This document shows positions 8,967 through 63,614 of a stretch of DNA of 64,000 nucleotides, piece after piece (position 1 is the first letter of the stretch; each line of letters opens with the position of its first letter). A model generated the notes under the pieces. It was not told the DNA's origin and did not search any database. It saw nothing but the letters and a program-made list of their open reading frames with translations. The position numbers and the translations under genes were made by a program. Source of the DNA: a virus (Duplodnaviria > Heunggongvirae > Uroviricota > Caudoviricetes); the IMG/VR virus record IMGVR_UViG_3300034072_000647; one strand, given 5' to 3'.

Positions 8967-10436
8967 TTACTGCCAGTCGTATCGTTCAATTTCGACTGCC
9001 TTACGCATGATAGCGTCAGGGGTGATCTTATCAAGGTCAACTGCAAGAATGGACTTCATGATAGCTGGCGAGAAACCAGAAACCAGAGCCACACCAGCCT
9101 CGTTGAACTTAACCGGCTTGTTACCGCGATCAGCGATGTTCCAGTAAACGATGACAGGAGTCTCGTAACCGGCATCCTGGTACATGCGAGCAATCATTGC
9201 CTGAGCACGGTCGTCGTAACGACCAGGATTGAACTGCATGTCAGACATGATAAGAATAATCTTAGGCATGTCCTCTGCGGGAACTCGATTGCTCATTGCG
9301 TGTGCAAGGATAAGATCGAAAACCGAGCGAAGGTTAGTGCTACCCCAAGCAGCAGAGCAAACAGCCGTAAGGCTTTCAGCAAGGCTGTTAGGGTTGTGAA
9401 CTACGAACTTGGCCTGATCGTTGAAGGAGATAGAGAGATTCTTGAAAGCTCCCTTTGACTTGCTTGCAACATACATACCCAGCGAAGCTGCGACGTCTGC
9501 GCAAGTAATCGTACCGGAGCCACCAGCTGGAGCGCCCATGGAACCGGAGTTATCAACGACAGCGATGACGTTCTGATCGTTCATGTAGTCAGGCAGAGCC
9601 TTCCACATGGCGGTAGCAACTTCATCGTCCTTGTAGTGCTGCGAGCGTCCATAACCATAACGGTTATAGCTAAGATCCTGCGCACCACCAATCATCTTGG
9701 TGATATCGTAAGGATAAACAGCCGAAGCGTTAACCTTCGCGACCTTAGGATCCCCCTTCTTCAGAGCTTCCTTGAAGGCACCGAACGCTTCTGGAGCATT
9801 ACGATGGAATGCGGTCATGTAGCGAGACATTGCGACCGAAGGAACGTGGGAGAAATTAATTCCATTCCACTCCTTCTTACACATGTCAGTCTCAACGACG
9901 TTCGTAAGGCCAACAAGCAGCTTACGGTACTCCTTAGGAGAAAGACCGAAAGTGTTGCGAAGCTCTACAGCCTTCGGACCCTTACGAGGCATCCACTTAG
10001 CCGCAAGACCATTTCCTTCGGAAAGAGCCTTAGCGATAAGATAGAAAGCCTTACGCTTAACAGCAGGGTTAGTGAAGATAAGCAGGTCGTCAAAACGGCC
10101 AATCTCTACCGTGTTGTCAAGAAGTTTGGACTCTGCAAGGATTGCAGGGTCATTCTTCTCAAGCCAAAGCAGGATATCTCGAAAGATCTTACGCTCACCA
10201 GCACCGCCGCGAATGTCACGAGCGTACTGAGCAATACGAATTGCGAGGTCTGCGTCCTGAGCGTAAGCTGCCTCAAAAGCAGGAATTACGTTCTGTCCGC
10301 GCATTGCGCCAACCGAACCGAAGAAGTCGACCAGAGCGCTAGAGGTAGTTGCAAAAGCACGCATACCGTTCTGCGTACGTGCAATTACAGGAGAGTGGCC
10401 GGCGGAGCGGCCGAGAGTGTTAACAAAAGTATTCAT
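8967..10436 (-). CDS. Ro60/TROVE-like protein with C-terminal vWA domain (Rsr-like)
   Basis: The C-terminal half has a vWA MIDAS motif (VVDNSGSM). The N-terminal half resembles the TROVE domain: FFGSVGAMRGQ...LAIRIAQYARDIRGG matches the Ro60 FGSEGGTYY...ALIRLIEDGRG region. Confidence 0.7.
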   Translation of the reverse strand: MNTFVNTLGRSAGHSPVIARTQNGMRAFATTSSALVDFFGSVGAMRGQNVIPAFEAAYAQDADLAIRIAQYARDIRGGAGERKIFRDILLWLEKNDPAILAESKLLDNTVEIGRFDDLLIFTNPAVKRKAFYLIAKALSEGNGLAAKWMPRKGPKAVELRNTFGLSPKEYRKLLVGLTNVVETDMCKKEWNGINFSHVPSVAMSRYMTAFHRNAPEAFGAFKEALKKGDPKVAKVNASAVYPYDITKMIGGAQDLSYNRYGYGRSQHYKDDEVATAMWKALPDYMNDQNVIAVVDNSGSMGAPAGGSGTITCADVAASLGMYVASKSKGAFKNLSISFNDQAKFVVHNPNSLAESLTAVCSAAWGSTNLRSVFDLILAHAMSNRVPAEDMPKIILIMSDMQFNPGRYDDRAQAMIARMYQDAGYETPVIVYWNIADRGNKPVKFNEAGVALVSGFSPAIMKSILAVDLDKITPDAIMRKAVEIERYDWQ

Positions 10437-10731: not shown

Positions 10732-10941
10732 TTATCCCTTTTGCTTTTTAGCTAGCTCATCGTCTAGCTTTTTCCATTCCTTGTCGAAGTCTTTCTTTTT
10801 ATTACCAGACAAGGTAGTAGTGTAGGCCTCAGTCCACTCGATTGCATCCCGCAAATACGGAGTAGGCTTGCCCAAAATCTTATTAGTCTCATCCATCATG
10901 ATCGCTCGTTGCATACGATCCCAGAAGAACTGTGCACTCAT
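10732..10941 (-). CDS. Hypothetical protein (69 aa)
   Basis: ORF. Confidence 0.45.
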   Translation of the reverse strand: MSAQFFWDRMQRAIMMDETNKILGKPTPYLRDAIEWTEAYTTTLSGNKKKDFDKEWKKLDDELAKKQKG

Positions 10942-11084
10942 TTCAGTATACCTTTCGACAGAGTTGAAGTCTGTTGCCTTACCATTAGGCTAATTTTCCT
11001 AGAGCGGAAAATATTGGAATTGAACCAATATAATTGTTTTGCTGCTAGTATACTTTATATACTTTAACAGGTTTCATAAAAGAC

Positions 11085-11154
11085 GGATTTGAACCGTACA
11101 GTCTCATTAAAAGTGAGATGCTCTACCCATTGAGCTACTATAATGTTTTGCTGT
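11085..11154 (-). tRNA. tRNA-Lys(TTT)
   Basis: D-arm TAGCTCAATGGGTAGAGCA. Anticodon TCTCA-CTTTTAA-TGAGA. T-arm ACGGTTCAAATCCGT. AT-rich acceptor. Confidence 0.6.
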
Positions 11155-11212
11155 GTGAAACCTAAAATTGTTGCTTTTATTATATCAGAATTGTTGAGGA
11201 TCCGCTCGCGCG

Positions 11213-11290
11213 GGGCCGCCAGGCCAGCTCCTCATAATATGGAGAGGAGCGAAGGAATCGAACCTTCTAGTTTTGTTTGCTGTTACAATT
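11213..11290 (-). tRNA. tRNA-like element (T-arm GAAGGTTCGATTCCTTC plus adjacent hairpins; unresolved)
   Basis: Has a T-arm and a CCA-like end, but the upstream part is AT-rich without a clear cloverleaf. Confidence 0.3.
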
Positions 11291-11292
11291 CT

Positions 11293-11505
11293 TTAAATGG
11301 GAGAGAATTTTATCTTCCCAGCTTTCCACAATTGAAGTTGAGTATTAAAATTCGTATTTAATTGTTCTGATCTAGACTTAAGATGCGCTATAATTATTAT
11401 GTCATCATAACTAGCATCTTCCGGATCTTTACCTAGTATCTCCGCGCACTTACGCTTTAACCTGAATATGTCATCTAATTCAGAACGTGTATAGTGAAAA
11501 TACAT
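11293..11505 (-). CDS. Hypothetical protein
   Basis: ORF trimmed to an internal Met to avoid overlap with tRNA-His. Confidence 0.4.
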   Translation of the reverse strand: MYFHYTRSELDDIFRLKRKCAEILGKDPEDASYDDIIIIAHLKSRSEQLNTNFNTQLQLWKAGKIKFSPI

Positions 11506-11517
11506 ATAATAACCTTT

Positions 11518-11590
11518 TGGTCGTGACGGAGGGATTCGAACCCTCAACTGCGGAATCACAATCCGCCATGTTCACCGTTTACACTACGCC
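11518..11590 (-). tRNA. tRNA-His(GTG)
   Basis: Perfect anticodon hairpin GCGGA-TTGTGAT-TCCGC. T-arm GAGGGTTCGAATCCCTC. CCA end. Confidence 0.6.
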
Positions 11591-11598
11591 ATCGAAAC

Positions 11599-11685
11599 TG
11601 GTGGGAGGGTGTGAGATCGAATCACTCCGGGGTTAACCGAGCGGTTTTACAGACCGCGTGCTAGAACCACTAGCTTTACCCGCCC
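11599..11685 (-). tRNA. tRNA-Tyr(GTA), long variable arm
   Basis: Anticodon GCGGT-CTGTAAA-ACCGC, a variable arm, T-arm GTGATTCGATCTCAC, CCA end. Confidence 0.7.
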
Positions 11686-12254
11686 ATATGCGCTAGCTTA
11701 CCACAGACACGAGCACTAGCGAAGCTGCTCCCGCGAACTCCATTACCCATATCTCCTGATACAACAAAATCGGCCCTATTTCGAGCAGCGTGACTTACCT
11801 TAGTCGTCTGCTCCGTTCCCAATACAGCTACCACACCGGGCAAGGCTGCTGGATAGATACCTTCACTCTTGTCGTTACCAAGCGAGGCCACAATCGTTAG
11901 GCCAAGCTGGTCAGCTACAAACTTGAAATCTTTTGCGCCCTTCTCATCATTAGTAGAGAAAGAAGTACAAACATACTTTACTCCGGCCTTTTTCATTTCG
12001 ATCATTGCTTTATAGGCTATCTGCCAGTCAATAATCACTTCATTGGGTCGAGTAGCGTCTGGGTCACGCTCGAAAGGTGACGCATAATAAACTTTAACGT
12101 TAGGAGCATTTTCCTTGATGGCCTTTAGCACCAAGTCTCCATGCTTATAATCAGTGGATTTGGCACTAACCTGAGTCACTGTCACGGAAGCGTCCGAAGG
12201 CATTCCGTTATCAATAACACCTACAGCGGCTAGAGCCAGTGCAAAAATAAGCAT
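11676..12254 (-). CDS. Secreted compact subtilisin-like serine protease (tentative)
   Basis: Has a signal peptide. Candidate catalytic residues are D in VIDNG, H in KHGDLV and S in GSSFASARVCG (compare GTSMAAPHVAG). Confidence 0.55.
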   Translation of the reverse strand: MLIFALALAAVGVIDNGMPSDASVTVTQVSAKSTDYKHGDLVLKAIKENAPNVKVYYASPFERDPDATRPNEVIIDWQIAYKAMIEMKKAGVKYVCTSFSTNDEKGAKDFKFVADQLGLTIVASLGNDKSEGIYPAALPGVVAVLGTEQTTKVSHAARNRADFVVSGDMGNGVRGSSFASARVCGKLAHMGG

Positions 12255-12274
12255 TTGATGTTCCTTTTTAATCT

Positions 12275-12356
12275 GGTATCCACGGTGGGACTCGAACCCA
12301 CAAGGATTAACCGGGAGATTTTAAGTCTCCTGCGTTTACCATTTCGCCACGTGGAC
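12275..12356 (-). tRNA. tRNA-Leu(TAA)
   Basis: Anticodon GGAGA-CTTAAAA-TCTCC, a long variable arm, T-arm TGGGTTCGAGTCCCA, CCA end. Confidence 0.75.
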
Positions 12357-12415
12357 ATGTCTCTCTTTGTTGAAGCCATTATATCCGTTTTAGCTTCTCA
12401 AGTCAACAATTAAAA

Positions 12416-12601
12416 TCACCAATGCGGTACAGCTATATACTCTTGATATAATTTCTCTAATTCCGTACCATCAACTTCTTCCCAAGACATACCCATTAAC
12501 AATTGCCAATTATCCGCGCTATAACGTTGATACTCGCCCCAAGGCTTCTCGGTGGTTCGTACAATCACTGAGCTAATAGGATGGATGCTTTTAATACGCA
12601 T
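12416..12601 (-). CDS. Hypothetical protein (61 aa)
   Basis: Started at an internal Met to avoid tRNA-Leu. Confidence 0.4.
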   Translation of the reverse strand: MRIKSIHPISSVIVRTTEKPWGEYQRYSADNWQLLMGMSWEEVDGTELEKLYQEYIAVPHW

Positions 12602-12617
12602 AATAACCTTTCTAAAC

Positions 12618-12703
12618 TGGTGGGGAAGGTGGGACTCGAACCCACACGGACTTTCATCCACTGCGTTCTAAGCGCAGCGCGGCTACCATTACACCACAAC
12701 CCC
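12618..12703 (-). tRNA. tRNA-Leu(TAG)
   Basis: Anticodon CTGCG-CTTAGAA-CGCAG, a long variable arm, T-arm GTGGGTTCGAGTCCCAC, CCA end. Confidence 0.7.
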
Positions 12704-12912
12704 GAAACTCTCCCAGTACCGGCTAAGCCGGCTCGCTACACATAGCTGGGATCTACGGATCTATACATATAAGGGCGTAGTTAACGTCTCTTCTCCAGAC
12801 TGTTGCCAGACAAGCTGTAGATTTGCAGCTCCCGCGTGTAACCTTACATGTTTACTAGGTCGGCTCCTGTAACCTCAGGGAACACTTTATACGGGACTGT
12901 GCCCAACCAAAC

Positions 12913-12988
12913 TGGTACTCCAGGTGAGACTTGAACTCACAAATTTACGGTTCTTAGCCGATTGCCTCTGCCGTTTGGCTACTGGAGC
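12913..12988 (-). tRNA. tRNA (anticodon unresolved; loop CTAAGAA on 3-bp stem)
   Basis: Acceptor GCTCCAG/CTGGAGT, D-arm GCC..GGC, T-arm GTGAGTTCAAGTCTCAC, CCA end. Confidence 0.5.
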
Positions 12989-13046
12989 ATGTATATCCGG
13001 CCGCCCCCAAGCATGGATCTTTATACCCCGAAAGGAGCCCATCAAA

Positions 13047-13529
13047 TTAGAAGCGGAAACCTACGCCTGCAAGCAGGGCATGGCTACCGGTATTACGGTC
13101 AAACTCAGAGTAATTGTACTGAGCCTTGATATAGGTAACGTCGCTAATCTTGCGCTCAACACCGGCACCTACCTTGAAGCCATCAAGCTTACGACTGAAA
13201 ACGTCGCGATAGTTATCGTAACCAGCATGGACATAGCCAAGAGTGCGTGGAGTGAAAGCGTAACCAAGACGTGCGCTAGCACCAATCATGCGCTCCTTTT
13301 CGAAGAAATTCGAGCTATTGGCTTCGACACCGATAGTCACTCGGTCGCCGAGCGGAGCATCGACACCGACTGCGGCTCCGTAAACCACGTCGTTAGCGTC
13401 TGGGCTGTTCTGAATGTCATTATATCCGGCAGTTACTTCGGCACGAACACCAGTGAAGGCAGCATTGGTCTGCGCAATGGCAGGGGTAGTGGCGAGGGCA
13501 GCAGCCGCTGCAAGTGCAATAAACTTCAT
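13047..13529 (-). CDS. Outer-membrane beta-barrel protein (OmpA/Omp25/opacity family-like) with signal peptide
   Basis: Starts MKFIALAAAAALATTPAIA after an AGGAGA SD. It has alternating amphipathic strands and ends in GVGFRF with a C-terminal Phe. Confidence 0.75.
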   Translation of the reverse strand: MKFIALAAAAALATTPAIAQTNAAFTGVRAEVTAGYNDIQNSPDANDVVYGAAVGVDAPLGDRVTIGVEANSSNFFEKERMIGASARLGYAFTPRTLGYVHAGYDNYRDVFSRKLDGFKVGAGVERKISDVTYIKAQYNYSEFDRNTGSHALLAGVGFRF

Positions 13530-13567
13530 TTTGTCTCCTAATGTGATGAGGAAGTACTCCTCGGAAC

Positions 13568-13642
13568 TGGAGCGGGCGACGGGAATCGAACCCGCTCTAT
13601 GTACGGTTTGGAAGACCGACCGCATACCTTATGCTCGCCTGC
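13568..13642 (-). tRNA. tRNA-Gly(TCC)
   Basis: Anticodon GCGGT-CTTCCAA-ACCGT. T-arm AGCGGGTTCGATTCCCGT. CCA end. Confidence 0.6.
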
Positions 13643-13742
13643 ATTAAACTTGTCCCTCTTTAACTCGTTTCCTCGACTGATTGCTAGCATCAGTATCGCT
13701 TATCGAGCGAGCGGGGAGGCTCAGCAGCCGTAGCTGTAAAAC

Positions 13743-13818
13743 TGGTCTAGGAGACAGGACTTGAACCTGCAACCCCCTGCTCCCAAAGCAGGTGCGCTAC
13801 CACTTGCGCTACTCCCAG
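13743..13818 (-). tRNA. tRNA-Pro(TGG)
   Basis: D-arm GCGCAAGTGGTAGCGC. Anticodon CCTGC-TTTGGGA-GCAGG. T-arm GCAGGTTCAAGTCCTGT. CCA end. Confidence 0.75.
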
Positions 13819-14273
13819 ATGAAAAAACTGGACCAGTTCACCTATAACACCTCACTGAGTGATGCGTGCTCTGTGTTTCCTGCTGCACTGGTAAGCAGCT
13901 CCCCCGAGAAGGCGGCACATTAGGTTCTCATCCTAATGGCTGGGGCGGTCCGGATGCCTCGCCGCTCTACCGAGTAGTAGCACAGCTTTATTGGCAGAGC
14001 AGGATACCGGCTCAATTTAGTCCCGAATACAATCAGTCCGGGCAGATGAATAGCGCTTTTAGGACCATCACCCAATCTCAAGTGGCTAGAGTGCCGTCCA
14101 CTCTCTAGCCCGCTAGTCCCATGTCAACGGAATGACTAGCCCCGCATCTATTCGTAGAGCGACCGGATGAACCTAACGCATGTTCATCACAACGTTATCA
14201 AGAGTTGCAATAAGCTCGTAAACTTCTGCATTGGGGCGGGTCTTCAAGTCCCGACTCCTCTCTTGATAAACTC

Positions 14274-14302
14274 ATTATAATTCAAGTCAGTTTCAATGTC
14301 AA
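14274..14302 (-). promoter_or_regulatory. Consensus promoter TTGACA-N17-TATAAT driving an ORF-free 430-nt segment and downstream tRNAs
   Basis: Minus sense: TTGACAttgaaactgacttgaatTATAATgag. Confidence 0.55.
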
Positions 14303-18576: not shown

Positions 18577-18798
18577 TCATAGCTCTAAAAGTTCTGTGAG
18601 AAACTTAGTTTTCTCACGCCTTTGTTTGTCGTTAAAGTCCCACACCTTCTCACGCTGTTCTTCGCTGAGTTCGATGCAAAATTCTTTATCTTCAATACAT
18701 CCTGACGCAAAAATTCTGCGCCCGAAATGTACATACTCTAAGTCAATCCACTGACTTTCCATTATATCTTCCATCCGTGGTAATGAGCAAAAGCACAA
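18577..18798 (-). CDS. Hypothetical protein (73 aa)
   Basis: ORF. It overlaps the thyX 3' end slightly. Confidence 0.4.
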   Translation of the reverse strand: MCFCSLPRMEDIMESQWIDLEYVHFGRRIFASGCIEDKEFCIELSEEQREKVWDFNDKQRREKTKFLTELLEL

Positions 18799-19628
18799 TA
18801 AGCCGCAACGTCTAGCGGATCGCCTTTGCTTACATGTTTACGAAGTTCTGTACGAAGTGACTCCTCCCAATGAGGATTCTGAAACCCATCGTTCCATTCG
18901 TATTTATCTTCACTAGCGCGCAGCTTGGCCTCTAGTGCTTCCGAGAACTTTTCAATCAGAAGGTCAATAGGATCCTTCTGGAAAATACCGGAGATAGCTG
19001 GGAAGTGCTCAGAGATAATAGCCCAGCAAAGGTTAGCTATTTCAGCGTGCTCTTTCTGAGTGCCATTAGCCATACGAAGTTGACAATAGTGGATCCAGCT
19101 ACGCAGAGTACCGGCCATGTATAGAGTGGAGTTAGTAAGCCCCTCAGGAAGAACAGCACGAGCCTGCTCCTTAGCAATGCCCTCCGCTAGCGCGGCTTTA
19201 TAAGTTCCTGCAGCTAGGTCCATAGTTACTTGCTGAGAGTTATTCCACCACTCAGTTAGGTCGTCATTGTCATGCTCAATAGAGTTCTGTCTGTTCTTCT
19301 TGTCCTGTAGACGTGCTTCTCGCGGGGACGAGAAGTCTACTACTTCGGCGTAACGCTGACTAAACTCCTGGAAACTAAAGCTACGGTGGCGAAGAATCTG
19401 CCTAGCAATATCTCTAGTTGTATTGATCTCAATGGTCATTGACACCATTTCTAGTGGAGACCAGTGCTCATTTTCAATGAGGTATTTAATCAGCTTAGCA
19501 GCTGTTTTCTTGTTGTTTTGGTTTGCAGGATTGCTGACGCGGGCACAGTAAGCAATAAGCTCCTCTGCTGTGTCCACGTCAACGGTATCATAAGGTTTGC
19601 TTAGTGCAACTAATCGGCAATGTGCCAA
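18762..19628 (-). CDS. thyX: Flavin-dependent thymidylate synthase ThyX
   Basis: Contains the ThyX signature RHRSFSFQEFSQRY (RHRxxSxxExSxRY). Confidence 0.85.
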   Translation of the reverse strand: MAHCRLVALSKPYDTVDVDTAEELIAYCARVSNPANQNNKKTAAKLIKYLIENEHWSPLEMVSMTIEINTTRDIARQILRHRSFSFQEFSQRYAEVVDFSSPREARLQDKKNRQNSIEHDNDDLTEWWNNSQQVTMDLAAGTYKAALAEGIAKEQARAVLPEGLTNSTLYMAGTLRSWIHYCQLRMANGTQKEHAEIANLCWAIISEHFPAISGIFQKDPIDLLIEKFSEALEAKLRASEDKYEWNDGFQNPHWEESLRTELRKHVSKGDPLDVAAYCAFAHYHGWKI

Positions 19629-21422: not shown

Positions 21423-21689
21423 TTATCTAGTAGGTCTAGCTGGTGGCAGAGGCATGTGCTCTTTTTCTGATAGCCAATACTTACCTTCGGGTCCGCATTT
21501 ATCTCTACCGAACCAGCTTTTCATGCGCTCCCAGTGGGCTGATACAGGGTTACTCTGCCAGCCTTGAACATTAGACCATACCTTCTTACGTCTGCATTGC
21601 CCACTCCAATAATGGAAGCAGGTCTTACAGATAGGTGGAAAGCCTTTCTCGGATGGTTCCGAAAGTTTCCATGTTGGAGACCTTGCCAT
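21423..21689 (-). CDS. Small Cys-rich protein
   Basis: ORF whose 5' end would overlap the nadV 3' end by about 65 nt. The true start may be internal. Confidence 0.3.
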   Translation of the reverse strand: MARSPTWKLSEPSEKGFPPICKTCFHYWSGQCRRKKVWSNVQGWQSNPVSAHWERMKSWFGRDKCGPEGKYWLSEKEHMPLPPARPTR

Positions 21690-23004
21690 TTTCGTATACA
21701 GTCCTCAATTGATCATGATACGACATAGCTGCCGTAGCGCTAGTGGTATTGAATTCGCCCCATTCAGTCTTAATGAGCTTCATACGGCCTTTCTTGCTCA
21801 TCTTACCAGGATCGGTGATAGGGTTCTTGGCAATGCCAATATCCTTACCGTCAATCGTGATATTGCTCGCCTTGAAGGCAAACTTGCAGGTATCTCTGTC
21901 AATGTTAGCCTGCATCAGGCCACCACCCGAACCAGTCATAATGCTATCAGCACTGATGCCCAGCTCCTCAGCAATCTGAAACGGAGTAACTACAGTGTCC
22001 TCATTTATACCGTCACCCTGGAGAATTTTGACATTCTTCAGAACCTTGAAGCCTTTACTGTTGATATCGTAGCCGAAACCTTCTGCGAGGATCGGCAGGA
22101 TCTTAGCAAACACTTCGCGCATGTCACCGCTATCCGGACGAACAACGAGAGTACCGTTCTTGGCACGGATCTTGTCCGCCAGCTTAACCCAATATTCGCA
22201 AGCACGATAAACGTTCCAGGTATCACTAACGACACTCAGGATACAGTTTTCAGGCATCATGTTGTCAATCAGATATTCGAACGAAGCGAACTCGTTCTCT
22301 TCACCGAAGCCGGTCATGACACTGTGTTCCGTGGCTGCTACAGAGTAAGCTGCCATCGGCTCATCATAATAGCGACGTGCGGCAAGCACAGCTGGAATAT
22401 TGTCAGAGCCAACAAAGCTAAGAAGGTGAGCCATGCCACCGACCTCGGAAGTTTCACGGCTAGAGACGCCGCGAGCACTGAAATCGAGAAGAGCGAAAGC
22501 CATATCACCTCGATCACTGGTACGGTCATAGTAAGGCTTGATCTTCTTCTTCATTTCGTGGACGCGAGTGGCAACAGTTACCGGATACCACACAGCACGA
22601 AGCAGAGCGGTTTCGATGTAGCTGGTCAGCCACGGCATACGTGGATCAGTGTTCTCAACCGTTACGAGAACATTGCGGGTAGGCACAACCGTACCTTCCG
22701 GTACCGCCTTGATGCGCACGGGGATGCGCCCATTGTGTTCAAAGACGATAATCAGCCAATCTTCCTCGTTGAAAGGTTCGCCATGAGCAGCAGCAAAAGC
22801 AGCCGCTTCAATGACATCCGCACGAGTTACACGAACTTCGGCCAGCTCCTGGACGAACTTCTGAATACCAGTGAAAACAGTTGCGGGGTATTTACCACCA
22901 CGGCTCTCAGCGTAACTGTATACGTGAGTAGCGCCCTGGGGATAGCCCAGAAAGTGGCTCAATTTATATGAATCGGTATTTAGTACGAAATTAAACTTGT
23001 TCAT
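21625..23004 (-). CDS. nadV: Nicotinamide phosphoribosyltransferase
   Basis: 459 aa with NAMPT-like sequence along its full length (NTDSYKLSHF..., GDG...). Confidence 0.85.
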   Translation of the reverse strand: MNKFNFVLNTDSYKLSHFLGYPQGATHVYSYAESRGGKYPATVFTGIQKFVQELAEVRVTRADVIEAAAFAAAHGEPFNEEDWLIIVFEHNGRIPVRIKAVPEGTVVPTRNVLVTVENTDPRMPWLTSYIETALLRAVWYPVTVATRVHEMKKKIKPYYDRTSDRGDMAFALLDFSARGVSSRETSEVGGMAHLLSFVGSDNIPAVLAARRYYDEPMAAYSVAATEHSVMTGFGEENEFASFEYLIDNMMPENCILSVVSDTWNVYRACEYWVKLADKIRAKNGTLVVRPDSGDMREVFAKILPILAEGFGYDINSKGFKVLKNVKILQGDGINEDTVVTPFQIAEELGISADSIMTGSGGGLMQANIDRDTCKFAFKASNITIDGKDIGIAKNPITDPGKMSKKGRMKLIKTEWGEFNTTSATAAMSYHDQLRTVYENGKVSNMETFGTIRERLSTYL

Positions 23005-23053: not shown

Positions 23054-23782
23054 TCAACAACTAAATTCAGGTAACAATTTATTACCTTTTGATTTATTTT
23101 CTGATTCGGTTAGATATTGAAGATTATTCTCTACATGTAATCCACATACACAATCTCCTTGTAGTGGGATTATATGATCCACGTTATAACCTTTAGGTTT
23201 ATTTAAATAAATTTCTTCAATTTTATTTAAATCAGCCCAAAGAGGTATAGCCTGTAGTTGAGCAGCTCTTCTTTTGGCTGAATTAGCAAAGTACTTATCT
23301 TTATTTCTTTGATAATAATCTCTTCGCCATTTTCTATTATATTCTAAGTTTTCTTGATATCTTATTTTATTGTACTCGGACCAGCGCTCTGCATATTCAG
23401 GTTTAAGTGTTGTGTTGTTTCTCACACAATTTTTACACTCATGTTTTAGCCCGTCTGGAGTGTACTTATCTTTAGAGAATAATTCTCTATTTACAAGCTC
23501 TCTACATCTAGAACATCTTTTAACATTTGTAAAGGTTAAAAATAAACTCTCCCAGGATCTATTAGCCATAGACCTTAGATCAATGTCTGGGAATAGTTCC
23601 TTTACATAACGTCTTAAAGTTTGAGACGACATACCTAAAAAATTTGCTGCATCTTTATCAAATAGATATAATGCATCAATTACGTCTTCTTGAGTAGCCT
23701 CTTGTCTGCTACCAAACTTTGTTACAAGTATTTTACTAGGCTGTATGCCGTAAGTTTCATATAATTTATCTTTGTCGAACAT
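23054..23782 (-). CDS. HNH homing endonuclease
   Basis: The gene is AT-rich. The C-terminal HNH motif is YNVDHIIPLQGDCVCGLHVENNLQYLTESENKSKGNK. It is inserted between nadV and the downstream genes. Confidence 0.8.
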   Translation of the reverse strand: MFDKDKLYETYGIQPSKILVTKFGSRQEATQEDVIDALYLFDKDAANFLGMSSQTLRRYVKELFPDIDLRSMANRSWESLFLTFTNVKRCSRCRELVNRELFSKDKYTPDGLKHECKNCVRNNTTLKPEYAERWSEYNKIRYQENLEYNRKWRRDYYQRNKDKYFANSAKRRAAQLQAIPLWADLNKIEEIYLNKPKGYNVDHIIPLQGDCVCGLHVENNLQYLTESENKSKGNKLLPEFSC

Positions 23783-24656: not shown

Positions 24657-24904
24657 TAGTCAATAGGCCTTGTATGTCGTTTGAGAATTTCTGCACCTTC
24701 TTCCGCTGTTTTACGAGGTTTTAGAACTTCCTCTTCTTCAACATTTTTATCCACTCTGTTAACCTCATTAATTACGTAAAAGCACCAATAGCGCTCATCA
24801 CTGTTCAATATCTTACGGAAGAAATGTCTCAAAGGCGGAGATCCTGCTTCGAGATATTTATCCATATAAATAAGAAAAGCTAGTTTCTCCGCCTTAGTAA
24901 ACAT
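24656..24904 (-). CDS. Hypothetical protein (82 aa)
   Basis: ORF coupled to natV. Confidence 0.5.
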   Translation of the reverse strand: MFTKAEKLAFLIYMDKYLEAGSPPLRHFFRKILNSDERYWCFYVINEVNRVDKNVEEEEVLKPRKTAEEGAEILKRHTRPID

Positions 24905-25920
24905 TACAGTCCCAACATATTCTTAATGATGTGATAGTGGTCCTCGAAGAACAGCTCTTCACGCAGATCAGAGATCGGGTACCAATCAGCATGATCGGCA
25001 TCATCCGAACCTCGAACTTCTGGCAGGCTAGTCTCATTGCGCAGCTTGATATGCTGCACCAGAGACGCGATACGGCCGCGCTCCGAGCGATTAGGATGAT
25101 CCGCGAAGAAGTTACCATGCACGCTGCCCTTAAGTACTGGCAGGGGCACCTTCAGTCGAGTCTCTTCCTTCAGCTCACGGAAAGCAGCATCAAAGCAAGT
25201 CTCGTCAGGGTTTACGAAACCGCCAGGCAGTGCCAGCAAGCCCTGACCATACTCCTTACCACGAGTAATAAGCAGGATGTTACCACCCACCTGGACCAGC
25301 GCATCAGCCGTCAAAAAGACACCATTACCCCACAGTTTCTTGTAGTTCTTGATGTATTCAAACTCGCTACGAAGGCGATCAGCTTCAGGAGTTCCCATGA
25401 ACTCGTTCTTAATCCAACGAACAGTATCACGATGCATAATCGTGGACAGTTCAAAGGCCTGGTGATCTTCCGCGAAGAACATTTCACGGATTGCAGTCGC
25501 ATTAAGCGGACTAGCAACAGGAACGTCCTCGCTGAGGAGCTCGGGGAACAGTTTCAGGTAGTAGCTAGTGTTGTCCTTGGCGTGACCTATCAGACCTACC
25601 TTGAGATCCTTCATCCCAAGACCAGTCCACTTGTCTCCAAGTGCAACTTCCTTGATATTCTTCTGGACTTCCTCAATCCAAGCGGTATCGTTGTAAGTGT
25701 GGTCCTTGACCCCACGAACGATAACATTCGGGTAGATCGTCTTAATCATATTCCGACGTTCGAGATAAGTGAACGGATTGCGCGTGGAACGCGCCTTCCC
25801 CTCTCCGCCTACCAGAACCAGAACTCGTTCGGACAAAGAAAGAGCGCGTTCAATCACTTCCTGGTGGCCCAAGTGAAGTGGCTGAAAGCGCCCGATAAAA
25901 ACTAGCAGATCATATTTCAT
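24904..25920 (-). CDS. natV: Bifunctional NMN adenylyltransferase / Nudix hydrolase
   Basis: N-terminal GRFQPLHLGH (HxGH cytidylyltransferase motif). C-terminal Nudix box GGFVNPDETCFDAAFRELKEETRL. Confidence 0.85.
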   Translation of the reverse strand: MKYDLLVFIGRFQPLHLGHQEVIERALSLSERVLVLVGGEGKARSTRNPFTYLERRNMIKTIYPNVIVRGVKDHTYNDTAWIEEVQKNIKEVALGDKWTGLGMKDLKVGLIGHAKDNTSYYLKLFPELLSEDVPVASPLNATAIREMFFAEDHQAFELSTIMHRDTVRWIKNEFMGTPEADRLRSEFEYIKNYKKLWGNGVFLTADALVQVGGNILLITRGKEYGQGLLALPGGFVNPDETCFDAAFRELKEETRLKVPLPVLKGSVHGNFFADHPNRSERGRIASLVQHIKLRNETSLPEVRGSDDADHADWYPISDLREELFFEDHYHIIKNMLGL

Positions 25921-34871: not shown

Positions 34872-35083
34872 TATCTACAAACCTTTTACTCTCCTAACAT
34901 CACTTCTAGACAGAAAGGCCTTCCCGTTCTAGGTTACTGATAGTCAAGCGATAGTCGCACCAAAATCATATTATATAGAGTCAGGCTGGTCAGCATTGCC
35001 AGCGAAATACTCTAATTCTCGGAGCTGTTCGAGGAGTCGTTTTTAACGCCCGGTTAAACTACTGAATCTATATAATATGCGCG

Positions 35084-35152
35084 TTTGCAGGCTGGGACTC
35101 GAACCCAGACTCCCGATCATAGGCCGGGGTGCTGCCGTTACACTACCTGCGT
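35084..35152 (-). tRNA. tRNA-like element (anticodon hairpin CCCGG-CCTATGA-TCGGG; no CCA)
   Basis: T-arm CTGGGTTCGAGTCCCAG and a D-arm-like GTG..CAC. Confidence 0.3.
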
Positions 35153-35484: not shown

Positions 35485-35557
35485 TTCTTGATGTAGGAAT
35501 CCAACCTACCTTTATTCCGGTTTAAATCCGGATTGACTCGCAGAATCATAATCAAGA
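35485..35557 (-). tRNA. tRNA-like element with anticodon loop ATTTAAA (UUA, ochre-suppressor-like); T-loop TTGGATT
   Basis: Perfect hairpin TCCGG-ATTTAAA-CCGGA. Acceptor TCTTGAT/ATCAAGA. D-stem GATT/AATC. The T-loop deviates (G56). Confidence 0.3.
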
Positions 35558-60003: not shown

Positions 60004-60909
60004 TTAAATCAAATCCTCGATACAATTACATTCAGATATGAAACATTCCGTATTGCCATTGGGCAACCCCGGATTTACCCTACTTTCCCTCAATTTCCAC
60101 AAAATTTCCCGCTCTGTTTCAATTGCCTCATCTAAATCTGGAAACTTCACGAAGTCTAATAACTTATACGCTGGGAACCCCCTAAAACGACTTTCTGTGT
60201 CTCTCTGAGTTATACCTATTTTTTTAAATTTACCAAAATCTACTAAATATAAATAAGTTTCTTTATTCTTCTTAAGAACACTATGATTTATATCTAATCC
60301 GGCTAACTCCAAGGCTTTTACCCAACTACCAAAACGCCCCACGACCGCCATAGAGCTAGGTTCTTCATCCTCTCGGAAGTAATCTAATCTTTCTTTGACT
60401 ACATATTTTCTAACCAAATCCAGCAGATACTCATCTGTATATTCTTTCTTAACTCCCAAACCTCTAGTACGTACCACGTTAGTTATAGCAGCTTCACTAC
60501 GCCCTAGAACCTCTGCAATGTACTTGTACTGATGACCCTTCTCTATTAGTTCTTTGACTTTACTAATATCAGCCTCGATCCAAGAACCTTCTCTATGCTT
60601 TTTACCTCTACGAACCTTTTCGAGCCCCTCCAGCTTAGACAATCTTCTAGATATAGAAGCCTCCGTACGGCCCAATTGTTTAGCTATAGCTTTATAAGTT
60701 TCTTTCGATTCATATAACTCTATAAGTAATTCATCCTCATAGTCTTTCCAGGATTCTCTAATTACGTTAGATTCTAGTACCCCGTATTGTATTAATTTAG
60801 ATATTCTACATTGTATCGCCTTTGTAGTTCTTCCCTCTATTTCCGGAAATTCATCCCTCTCTCTGGCGTTAATTATAATTTGATCTTCTTCTTTTGTCCA
60901 TCGTTTCAT
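60004..60909 (-). CDS. Myb/SANT-like repeat protein with C-terminal T5orf172 (GIY-YIG superfamily) domain
   Basis: The N-terminal half has three W..EED..I / HTH-like repeats. The C-terminal region LYLVDFGKFKKIGITQRDTESRF has a GIY...YIG...R arrangement like the T5orf172 domain. The AT content is atypical, which suggests a homing-endonuclease-like mobile gene. Confidence 0.65.
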   Translation of the reverse strand: MKRWTKEEDQIIINARERDEFPEIEGRTTKAIQCRISKLIQYGVLESNVIRESWKDYEDELLIELYESKETYKAIAKQLGRTEASISRRLSKLEGLEKVRRGKKHREGSWIEADISKVKELIEKGHQYKYIAEVLGRSEAAITNVVRTRGLGVKKEYTDEYLLDLVRKYVVKERLDYFREDEEPSSMAVVGRFGSWVKALELAGLDINHSVLKKNKETYLYLVDFGKFKKIGITQRDTESRFRGFPAYKLLDFVKFPDLDEAIETEREILWKLRESRVNPGLPNGNTECFISECNCIEDLI

Positions 60910-61872: not shown

Positions 61873-62203
61873 TACATCGGCGGTAGCACCTGCCGTAGTA
61901 GCTGTTCAGCCCGCGTCGGTCGTCGTCCCTAGCACATATCTCGCCGCCTCGGATCGCAGAAAGGGCTTCGCCCTATTTTTCCTAGCCGGCGGTGGTGCAA
62001 TGATGACAATCTACGCATCTATAGTTCTGTATCTAGTTCAGGAGTATCCGCGCTACGCATACTATCTCGGACTATTTGCAATGTTAAACATATTTATGAT
62101 ATTCACCGGCCTGGTAGGCATGTTCGTTAAGAGATCGATCAATGTTACTAGAAATGGTGTAATTATTGAGGATCAAAATGGCAGTCAAGATCAGCAGAGC
62201 TGA
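61838..62203 (+). CDS. Small membrane protein
   Basis: ORF with 2 TM helices. The start may be the internal MMTIYAS. Confidence 0.4.
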   Translation: MTTVTTTETATNTSAVAPAVVAVQPASVVVPSTYLAASDRRKGFALFFLAGGGAMMTIYASIVLYLVQEYPRYAYYLGLFAMLNIFMIFTGLVGMFVKRSINVTRNGVIIEDQNGSQDQQS

Positions 62204-63614
62204 CGTAGTAGACACACATATTGTTGAAGACTTGCCGGGGCGTTTTCTCAAGGTACCGATTTCACGGTACCTTGAGACCCTGGCCGAGGGTCGTTATCAG
62301 GGATTTGAGGAGGCGTTGCCTTCTCAGATGGCTTTGATTAATGCGATAAATAAGTATCGCTTTGTTGTTGCGGCATTGTCTCGACGACAGGGGAAGACGT
62401 TTATTGCGAATATCATTGGGCAGTGCGTGACACTGGTTCCTGGTTCGAACGTGTTGATTATGTCACCGAATTACCAGCTGAGCTCGATTTCGTGGGACGA
62501 GCAGCATAAGCTGTTGAAGTTTCATGATATTGAGACGGAGCGCGATAATGCTAAGGACCGAGTGGTTGAGCTGTCGAACGGATCTACGATCCGTATGGGT
62601 TCGATCAATCAGGTTGACTCTAGCGTTGGACGTAGCTACGATTTGATTATTTTCGACGAGGCGGCACTGACTGACGGAATGGAGGCATTCTCGCAGGCTT
62701 TGAGACCTACGTTGGATAAACCGAATTCGAAGGCTATCTTTATTTCGACGCCTCGTGGTAAGTCGAACTGGTTTAGCGTGCTTTATAACCGCGGTTACGA
62801 CATTGGTGAAGATGGCCAGATGCAGAAGTTTCCTGACTGGTGTTCGATTCACGCAACCTGGGCCGATAATCCTAGAATGACTGAGGATGACGTCGCTGAG
62901 GCACGTCGTACAATGTCTAAGGCTCTATTTGAGCAGGAATATGAGGCATCGTTCAACAACTACGAAGGTCAGATTTGGAACTTAACGGACGACTGTATAG
63001 TTGAGGAAGGAGAGACGCATGAAGTATTTCTTGAAGACGATCGCGGGAATCCTGTTACAGCTCCAGACGGCTCGTTTGTTAGCGAGATCAGGCTCAAGCA
63101 TCCCTATCTTCGCGGCAACGATCGCCATAAGTTGGATATCGTCGCGGGTCTAGACCTTGGTTTCAAGGATCCAACGGCAATGTGTGTCATTGGATATGAT
63201 TATGCGGCTGATATTTACTACGTTCTAGACGAGTATTTTGACAACGAGAAGACCACTTCGGGTCACGCGCAGGAAATAGAGCGCTTGATCAAAAAGTGGG
63301 AAATTGACTACGTATTTATCGACTCGGCAGCGCAACAGACTAAGTTCGACCTTGCTAAAGATTACGACATTCCGACAATTAACGCGACTAAATCCGTTAA
63401 TGACGGTATCGGTTTCGTAGCTTCCCTAGTTGATAATAAGAAAGTAATTGTACCAAAGCACTGTCGTGAGGTACTGAGAGCATTTGACGCTTATAAGTGG
63501 GATCCTAATCCTAACCTCGTCAAGGAGAAGCCGAAGCACGATATTGCATCTCACATGGCTGACGCTATTAGATATGCTCTGTACAGCTTCGAATCCTCTG
63601 TAGGAAAGATGTAA
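62178..63614 (+). CDS. Terminase large subunit
   Basis: Walker A-like SRRQGKTF, Walker B LIIFDEAAL, and a C-terminal nuclease-like region. About 480 aa. Confidence 0.9.
   Translation: MAVKISRADVVDTHIVEDLPGRFLKVPISRYLETLAEGRYQGFEEALPSQMALINAINKYRFVVAALSRRQGKTFIANIIGQCVTLVPGSNVLIMSPNYQLSSISWDEQHKLLKFHDIETERDNAKDRVVELSNGSTIRMGSINQVDSSVGRSYDLIIFDEAALTDGMEAFSQALRPTLDKPNSKAIFISTPRGKSNWFSVLYNRGYDIGEDGQMQKFPDWCSIHATWADNPRMTEDDVAEARRTMSKALFEQEYEASFNNYEGQIWNLTDDCIVEEGETHEVFLEDDRGNPVTAPDGSFVSEIRLKHPYLRGNDRHKLDIVAGLDLGFKDPTAMCVIGYDYAADIYYVLDEYFDNEKTTSGHAQEIERLIKKWEIDYVFIDSAAQQTKFDLAKDYDIPTINATKSVNDGIGFVASLVDNKKVIVPKHCREVLRAFDAYKWDPNPNLVKEKPKHDIASHMADAIRYALYSFESSVGKM

Follow-up and report, generated by a model that had tools for sequence, protein, structure and literature searches.

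We analysed a 64,000-nucleotide stretch of viral DNA (IMG/VR virus record IMGVR_UViG_3300034072_000647; hereafter, the window) and in particular two minus-strand genes which lie among its tRNA genes. The upstream gene encodes a protein of 160 residues which is predicted to form a small outer-membrane beta-barrel (the barrel), while the downstream gene encodes a predicted protease of 192 residues with a minimal subtilisin fold. The explanation that we prefer, to which we give as a whole slightly better than an even chance, is that the window comes from an uncultivated T5-like (Demerecviridae-like) phage of ~115 kb in which the barrel and protease genes are two independent accessory genes, probably co-transcribed with the tRNA array, and that the phage barrel, as judged from sequence alignments, has lost all four extracellular loops relative to the nearest cellular relatives found. 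The features that we consider most worth following are the consistency of this loop loss, the spread of the barrel over several uncultivated lytic phage types and its affinity to Sphingomonadales. The assignment of the phage draws on a T4-type large terminase (62166–63614) with 47% identity to Demerecviridae Vibrio phages of 113–117 kb, on the 32 tRNA genes of the window, and on a ~115 kb Joint Genome Institute (JGI) metagenome contig (3300035670 Ga0310129_0000139) which, together with many shorter contigs, carries the same proteins as the window.

An earlier sequence-only reading had placed two secreted or envelope proteins within the tRNA cluster at 11676–13529. This span does run from the stop codon of the protease gene to the start codon of the barrel gene, both on the minus strand and with tRNA genes interleaved. 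Both open reading frames (ORFs) are real genes, since identical or near-identical proteins are encoded on many independent metagenome contigs and the Pfam gathering thresholds are passed.

The barrel protein is predicted to be a small eight-stranded outer-membrane barrel

The barrel gene (13047–13529, minus strand) opens with an ATG at 13529, 5 nt downstream of a Shine-Dalgarno sequence which can be read directly from the DNA (AGGAG, 13535–13539, minus strand). Its product matches the OMP_b-brl family PF13505 at 53.5 bits (gathering threshold 28.7), with residues 7–160 aligned to model positions 3–175 of 175. For both proteins of interest, signal peptides were assessed using heuristic rules, namely a basic n-region, an h-region and a (-3,-1) site. 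In the barrel, the predicted signal peptide occupies residues 1–19 (nt 13529–13473) and reads MKFIALAAAAALATTPAIA, with Q and then T as the first residues of a mature protein of 141 residues. It displays a basic K2, an 11-residue hydrophobic core (FIALAAAAALA), Pro at -4 and Ala at -3 and -1, such that cleavage would fall between TPAIA and Q, and these simple rules are satisfied by 115/120 barrel homologues. At the opposite end of the chain, the sequence G155-V-G-F158-R-F160 fits the GxxΩxΩ assembly motif. Residues F160 and G157 are invariant across the family, at least 90% of sequences retain G155 and R159, and 118/120 homologues terminate in xRF, bearing out the earlier remark that the protein ends in the canonical Phe (GVGFRF). 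Signals for Sec export, for signal-peptide cleavage and for insertion by the beta-barrel assembly machinery (BAM) are present at the level of sequence and model.

An AlphaFold model built from 83 sequences (predicted local distance difference test (pLDDT) score 81.8) contains eight strands, with the signal peptide appearing as a low-pLDDT helix at residues 3–14. The top Foldseek matches in the PDB are Ail, OmpX, OmpA-TM, NspA and OprF-N, all of which are eight-stranded outer-membrane barrels. We conclude that the protein is, by prediction, a small closed eight-stranded outer-membrane barrel, and the fold proposed from the sequence is the one that modelling returns. Two further descriptions given at that stage need amending. 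The term 'porin-like' is inappropriate for a protein of 141 mature residues and eight strands whose best structural matches are small eight-stranded barrels: porin chains give partial matches to the model (template modelling score (TM-score) 0.33–0.42), and a general porin, which is a 16- to 18-stranded trimer, is ruled out. The label 'OmpA/Omp25-like' is sound for Omp25/Omp31 at the level of PF13505/COG3637, and for OmpA it applies to the transmembrane fold only. The peptidoglycan-binding C-terminal domain of OmpA (PF00691) finds no match in the barrel protein, which stops at strand beta-8 (residue 160), and full-length OmpA is thus rejected as its counterpart. The GC content at third codon positions (GC3) of the barrel gene is 0.50, inside the range of the other phage genes, which argues for an old, adapted phage gene as opposed to a recent capture.

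The phage barrels appear to lack the extracellular loops of their cellular relatives

Cellular relatives were sought in 185,579 species genomes, using a scan seeded with patterns from a six-sequence barrel alignment, and in 72,556 plasmids by unbiased tblastn. In the species genomes they are confined to Alphaproteobacteria, except for one metagenome-assembled genome labelled 'Proteobacteria', the best being from Sphingomonadales (30–34% identity) followed by Rhizobiales. The plasmid search returned 11 matches at 30–38% identity, ten of them in Sphingomonadales and one in Paracoccus. The Sphingomonadales proteins, which are 201–203 residues long and belong to the Omp25/Omp31-type PF13505/COG3637 group, resemble the phage barrel in possessing a signal peptide, an eight-strand topology and a C-terminal aromatic residue, and strand motifs such as AEYRYSDF align between them. 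They differ in that the identity is 30–38%, that the phage gene resides in lytic-type phages, and that the phage barrel is shorter by ~40 residues which correspond exactly to the four extracellular loops. In the alignment with the Sphingomonadales proteins, the phage barrels have 12, 15, 11 and 3 residues fewer at the predicted loops L1–L4, respectively, while the periplasmic turns are of equal length. A comparison with the family profile gave a concordant picture: all 80 viral loci are compact (-6 to +10 residues), and all four end-to-end cellular matches are 30–39 residues longer. Within the phage family the strands are conserved and the loops and turns are variable, with insertions in L1 and L3 and an unusually conserved L2; in the window protein the loops measure 3–7 residues.

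Two considerations temper this comparison. The cellular searches covered peptide patterns or plasmids, by which a closer chromosomal homologue could be overlooked, and the Sphingomonadales relationship, which is an affinity and not an identification of the host, rests on identities of 30–38%.

Among phage proteins, the lambda Lom/Ail-OmpX family has the same fold and size class as the window barrel, and Ail and OmpX are among its top structural matches. Lom is the classical eight-stranded phage barrel, a phage-encoded protein which is inserted into the host outer membrane and is expressed in lysogens from a prophage gene. Membership of the Lom/Ail family was considered and rejected (PHROG 108, E 0.75; PF06316 unreported at E ≤ 1). 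Ail, OmpX and Lom all have long protruding loops, in contrast to the short loops of the window protein, and Lom is a prophage gene whereas the window phage looks virulent and T5-like. The cyanophage family PF24653 (Phage_OMP) and the phage OMP barrels held in BFVD are also small, bear signal peptides and come from large lytic phages. PF24653 does not match the window barrel at E ≤ 1. Relatives of the window barrel match this family below its threshold of 27 bits (P0091 at 25.2 bits and P0066 at 18.1 bits), some members from T4-like phages falling just short of it, and several members carry precomputed PF24653 matches. Searching BFVD with the barrel recovered many annotated phage OMP barrels, at 21% identity or less. 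Because BFVD contains many such proteins and Pfam has Phage_OMP, the barrel is of a kind that is already known. The literature on phage-encoded beta-barrel outer-membrane proteins yielded no functional study and nothing on this family, but instead reviews, Lom/LomW vaccine papers and receptor studies.

The barrel family is found in T5-like and T4-like phages

A word-index search of 5.8 billion proteins places at least 250 proteins in the barrel family. The best 120 are nearly all 154–169 residues long and none is encoded on a contig above 201.5 kb, and every genomic context that was examined is a phage contig of T5-like or T4-like character. Contexts with 60–100% identity represent the same T5-like phage type, in which the barrel gene lies inside a tRNA array, with ThyX/AdoMet decarboxylase to one side of it and a DUF2828/DUF7788 gene to the other; in two of the related contigs (L009 and L010) the gene is syntenic in the tRNA array at 60–69% identity. 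Members with 44–53% identity occur in T4-like phages, and the contexts examined at 47–53% encode a gp44 clamp loader, RegA, T4 RNA ligases, a family-B DNA polymerase and HSP20. A single pattern scan of IMG/VR found at least 92 stretches encoding the family. Of the 80 stored loci, 19 have three or more tRNA genes within 4 kb and 51 have none, which makes residence in a tRNA array a trait of one clade and not of the whole family. Searches of cultured phages, comprising 50,697 GenBank phage records, gave no tblastn match for the barrel protein or for a member from a T4-like phage (even at E ≤ 1), and the sole megablast match of positions 11000–14000 among cultured phages was a tRNA-like stretch of 47 nt in Acidovorax phage ACP17.

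The protease gene encodes a predicted minimal subtilase

The protease gene (11676–12254, minus strand) is preceded at a distance of 7 nt from its ATG by a Shine-Dalgarno-like AAGGA, again read from the sequence (12262–12266, minus strand). Residues 48–189 of its product match the S8 family PF00082 at 27.6 bits (gathering threshold 21.8; E 2.3e-6). An AlphaFold model built from 13 sequences is of high confidence (pLDDT 92.2; predicted template modelling score (pTM) 0.89), and Foldseek relates it with a probability of 1.0 to subtilisin BPN', PagA and proteinase K (query-normalised TM-score 0.62–0.69), in line with the S8 fold that the sequence-only reading had called for. Profile alignment with subtilisin DY equates D15 with D32, H38 with H64 and N127 with N155, and superimposes GSSFA on GTSMA. 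The catalytic residues are Asp15 (nt 12212–12210; motif VGVIDNG), His38 (12143–12141; YKHGD), the oxyanion-hole Asn127 (11876–11874; LGNDK) and Ser176 (11729–11727; GSSFA), which occur in the D-H-S order proposed earlier. H38, N127 and S176 do not vary across the 13 members of the family, of which 12 have D15 and one, P0143, has Glu in its place. A C96–C184 disulfide would be a possible marker of a periplasmic location, but position C184 is Thr in 2/13 relatives and the pair is for that reason not obligatory. On the basis of the model and these motifs, the protein is a minimal S8 member of subtilisin fold with an intact Asp-His-Ser triad and oxyanion Asn, and is predicted to be a protease.

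The same fold, triad order and oxyanion Asn are common to the window protease, the classical subtilisins (BPN' and Savinase) and the cyanobactin protease PagA, at 14–19% identity. Classical subtilisins comprise about 275 residues plus a propeptide. The window protein is ~80 residues shorter because the chain stops after the helix bearing the catalytic Ser, and it has neither an I9 propeptide nor the C-terminal helices. The earlier description of the protein as unusually small is justified in relation to these enzymes, and it overlooks a known precedent in QhpE, for which the NCBIfam model spans 219 positions. QhpE (NF049966) is indeed the best NCBIfam model for the window protein (58 bits, E 8e-16; residues 11–190 against positions 2–191). 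QhpE is the cytoplasmic leader peptidase of quinohemoprotein amine dehydrogenase maturation (PMC7876137), and is likewise ~200 residues long, free of a propeptide and provided with an Asp near the N-terminus. Orthology with QhpE was nevertheless rejected, the score being 58 bits for a cutoff of 165, which 0/10 of the relatives tested reach. The surroundings do not resemble a qhp operon (with its QhpC substrate, radical-SAM QhpD and QhpF exporter): the neighbours are tRNAs and small ORFs, and no qhp-type Pfam domain was found in ten large window proteins or in the part of the small ORFs that was scanned. Unlike QhpE, members of the window protease family are carried by phages and conjugative elements.

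The family is rare, with 13 members found by the word-index search and 22 cluster representatives at E ≤ 1e-10 in an exhaustive search among 1.84 billion. In cultured phages, tblastn with the protease gave just weak matches (E about 1e-3, 24–25% identity) in annotated Lactococcus phage protease genes. The protein thus belongs to a rare, mobile-element-associated branch of minimal subtilases which would be useful for defining the smallest working S8 fold.

The hydrophobic N-terminus of the protease is better explained as a core strand than as a signal peptide

The protease begins MLIFALALAAVGVIDNG and is hydrophobic at its N-terminus, with no K/R in the first six residues and none before K32. 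In the AlphaFold model, residues 10–14 form the core strand beta-1 with Asp15 directly after it (pLDDT 94 for residues 11–20), such that only nine residues lie ahead of the strand. The sole (-3,-1) site at positions 15–28 follows residue 22, and cleavage there would strip the protein of its catalytic Asp15. With Asp15 situated within the hydrophobic segment, a signal peptide and the D-H-S triad are mutually exclusive, and there is no room for a longer N-terminus, as just 20 nt separate tRNA-Leu(taa) from the ATG. These findings do not support a cleavable signal peptide, and the model points to the hydrophobic N-terminus being the beta-1 strand which carries the catalytic Asp. The statement that both proteins have signal peptides was therefore correct for the barrel and mistaken for the protease.

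The family falls into two classes. In the short class, the Asp is at positions 13–17 with no K/R near the N-terminus, and the members examined are found in phage contexts (L007, L008 and L153). In the long class (P0004, P0144, P0145, P0150 and P0156–P0159), textbook signal peptides stand directly before the same hGhhD motif. Two long-class genes, P0144 and P0145 (L152 8001–8687 and L156 5150–5836), occupy equivalent positions on two contigs of conjugative elements, between a MobA/MobL relaxase and DnaB, VirB4 and type IV secretion system (T4SS) genes. This placement suggests a periplasmic role in conjugation, for example in pilus or exclusion biology. P0144 found no match among PLSDB plasmids.

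We read the phage protease as a non-exported or membrane-proximal processing protease, most likely a narrow-specificity endopeptidase which would act inside the cell or at the inner membrane face. Weighing on the other side are the canonical signal peptides found in about half of the relatives, and the conserved hydrophobic 9–10-mer, often Ala-ended, which the short class retains just before beta-1. As this segment resembles a truncated signal peptide, it keeps export of the protease within consideration, and we regard export as doubtful although its chances are appreciable.

These observations also bear on the broader proposal that both proteins are secreted, with the protease acting in the periplasm or envelope and a porin-like barrel masking a receptor or excluding a superinfecting phage, which we consider unlikely. 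It accords with the predicted export and outer-membrane insertion of the barrel, which on sequence and model are very probable, with the canonical signal peptides of the eight long-class relatives named above and with the hydrophobic segment that precedes beta-1 in the short class. Against this, the N-terminus of the window protease has no basic residue and just nine residues before beta-1, and the available cleavage site would cost the protein its Asp15. Moreover, an eight-stranded barrel of 141 mature residues is far from a general porin, and the exclusion part of the proposal is conjectural.

The barrel may alter the surface of the infected cell

Based on its predicted features, the barrel would be exported by Sec, lose its 19-residue signal peptide and be inserted by BAM, forming a closed barrel of eight strands in the outer membrane of the host. 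Produced early and abundantly, it might then remodel the host-cell surface during infection. With hardly anything exposed, such a barrel could take up outer-membrane space or assembly capacity, or could bind a partner. The outcome might be reduced adsorption of competing phages, or fewer progeny lost to cell debris, effects that T5 Llp and lambda-type exclusion proteins achieve by other means. T5 Llp is an early product of a T5-like phage, a small lipoprotein which is sent to the outer membrane and binds FhuA. Together with the Cor protein of phi80/T1, which also acts in surface exclusion, Llp offers a possible functional analogy only: the barrel is an integral beta-barrel which, unlike the lipoprotein Llp, has no lipobox, and there is no homology between them. 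We favour surface remodelling because several types of lytic phage keep the gene, because the loops are cut to 3–7 residues, leaving little for another phage to bind, and because Llp shows that T5-like phages direct an early product to the outer membrane to this end, and we regard superinfection exclusion or surface remodelling by the barrel as plausible. Several points speak against such a role. Loops this short give the barrel little surface with which to mask a receptor, the conserved L2 fits a specific partner better than passive space-filling, and the role in exclusion or remodelling is one that we purely infer.

Surface-altering phage genes decide which other phages infect the same cell and how many progeny go to debris. 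Those studied in depth are either lipoproteins (T5 Llp and Cor) or, as with Lom, prophage genes. By lacking the loops of the closest bacterial relatives found, this compact barrel family becomes a concrete candidate, simple to clone, for another route to outer-membrane remodelling, and the Sphingomonadales affinity amounts to a testable host prediction for a widespread T5-like group without a cultured member. A more far-reaching account, which we think rather improbable when all of its parts are taken jointly, is that the barrel represents a phage-specific 'loop-less' clade derived from an alphaproteobacterial structural outer-membrane protein, which has passed between unrelated T5-like and T4-like lytic phages and is expressed early, so that the surface fills with a barrel unusable as a receptor; separately, the mini-subtilases without signal peptides would have branched off, as a phage-adapted cytoplasmic form, from a periplasmic protease family of mobile elements. 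If true, this would reveal a general strategy of replacing, not masking, receptors in order to exclude competitors or protect progeny.

The barrel might alternatively stabilise the envelope, by replacing abundant host OMP_b-brl proteins which are no longer synthesised after infection and so keeping the outer membrane intact until lysis. This is a reasonable idea to which we nonetheless assign a low probability. The homology of the barrel to abundant structural Omp25/Omp31-type PF13505 proteins of Alphaproteobacteria, its conserved core and minimal loops, and its retention by several kinds of lytic phage would all be expected. However, outer-membrane proteins are long-lived whereas the lytic cycle is short, the depletion of host proteins is an assumption, and the existence of cultured T5-like phages without a barrel gene indicates that it is not generally needed.

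The barrel and protease genes appear to be independent

Among the contigs examined, the two families occur near one another in the window, where the genes are 0.8 kb apart, and in one more distant phage contig (L008), where the separation is ~5 kb and which is the sole such case. In the related phages L009 and L010 the barrel gene is found in the same place, and the interval up to the DUF2828 gene contains no protease gene, while L007 and L153 have the protease and no barrel gene within 6–8 kb. Because related phages retain the barrel gene without the protease gene, there is no visible functional link between the two. A paired module, in which the protease processes the barrel protein or host outer-membrane proteins for surface remodelling, would account for the proximity in the window and in L008, but is very improbable in view of the contigs in which either gene occurs without the other nearby, the much larger size of the barrel family (at least 250 proteins, as against the 13 members and, in the separate search, 22 representatives of the protease family) and the likelihood that the protease resides in a different compartment from the barrel. 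Least credible of all is that both genes are functionless, host-derived passengers carried in a recombination-prone tRNA region: although strains show mosaicism here, L001 and L004 having GIY-YIG and other insertions, and the distribution of the protease is patchy, the catalytic residues, signal peptide, C-terminal assembly motif and Gly/aromatic positions of the barrel are intact across 30–100% identity, the GC3 of both genes is in line with that of the phage, and the synteny of the barrel gene is held over deep divergence. In a search for defence and anti-defence systems, PADLOC returned nothing for the barrel, the protease or the 61-residue ORF which lies between them.

The tRNA array and other features of the window

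The minus strand carries all 32 tRNA genes that ARAGORN identifies in the window, and the first 17 kb contain 30 of these. Reading along the minus strand, the order of features around the two genes is tRNA-Pro (13743–13818, ARAGORN), a tRNA-like element (13571–13642), the barrel gene, tRNA-Leu(aag) (12913–12988; ARAGORN, Rfam 51.7 bits), which is directly downstream of the barrel gene, tRNA-Leu(tag) (12618–12703, ARAGORN), the 61-residue ORF, tRNA-Leu(taa) (12274–12356; ARAGORN, Rfam 61 bits), 20 nt upstream of the protease ATG, the protease gene and, directly downstream of it, tRNA-His(gtg) (11518–11593; ARAGORN, Rfam 51.8 bits). The tRNA-like element lies 42 nt upstream of the barrel gene start, matches Rfam RF00005 at 31.9 bits (gathering score 29) and is not called by ARAGORN; its position corresponds to that of a tRNA-Gly(tcc) upstream of the barrel gene in relatives L009 and L010. 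A second such element, also uncalled by ARAGORN, is found at 10922–10999 (minus strand; Rfam 29.2 bits, gathering score 29), and an 88-nt 'tRNA-Phe(aaa)' called by ARAGORN at 11240–11327 (minus strand) has no Rfam match at E ≤ 0.1. All three may be degenerate or unusual tRNAs. Situated ~18 kb from the main array are tRNA-Ile(tat) (35083–35152) and a predicted suppressor tRNA with anticodon tta, reading UAA (35485–35557), both on the minus strand.

A consensus scan found two putative sigma-70-type promoters on the minus strand inside the tRNA array. One (TTGACA-17-TATAAT, 12/12 consensus positions; 14274–14302) precedes tRNA-Pro, the tRNA-like element and the barrel gene, and the other (TTGACT-17-TATAAT, 11/12; 12378–12406) stands immediately ahead of tRNA-Leu(taa) and the protease gene. 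No terminator-like sites were found on the same strand between these sites and the two genes. The near-perfect matches would be consistent with strong transcription by the host RNA polymerase early in infection, as happens in T5, whose very strong early promoters they resemble.

The 489-residue DUF2828/DUF7788 protein is encoded inside the tRNA array (8967–10436, minus strand) and is syntenic in all related contigs examined (L002, L003, L009 and L010), a constant association with the tRNA cluster which may be meaningful. Strains with an identical barrel protein vary just upstream of it, where a 179-residue ORF and a GIY-YIG endonuclease gene are present or absent (L001 2347–2886; L004 793–1401 and 1988–2527), and the tRNA region is a mosaic hotspot between strains.

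Elsewhere in the window, a Pfam scan of the ten large proteins identified ThyX, NAMPT and an NMNAT/Nudix protein. The minus-strand genes at 21625–23004, 24904–25920 and 18762–19628 encode an NAD+ salvage pair (NAMPT and a cytidylyltransferase-like/Nudix NadR-type protein) plus ThyX, and such genes are typical auxiliary metabolic genes in large lytic phages. An ORF of 242 residues (23054–23782, minus strand) with no Pfam match is a strong compositional outlier (GC 0.317 and GC3 0.206, against 0.455 for the window) and is probably a recent acquisition. Beside the terminase region, a protein of 301 residues (60004–60909, minus strand) combines Myb/helix-turn-helix (HTH) and homing-endonuclease-associated repeat domains, and is a probable homing endonuclease or regulator. 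Finally, the contig L008, which carries both a protease and a barrel homologue, contains three tRNA-like genes called by ARAGORN with undetermined two-base 'ct' anticodons (34–109, 125–198 and 1144–1219).

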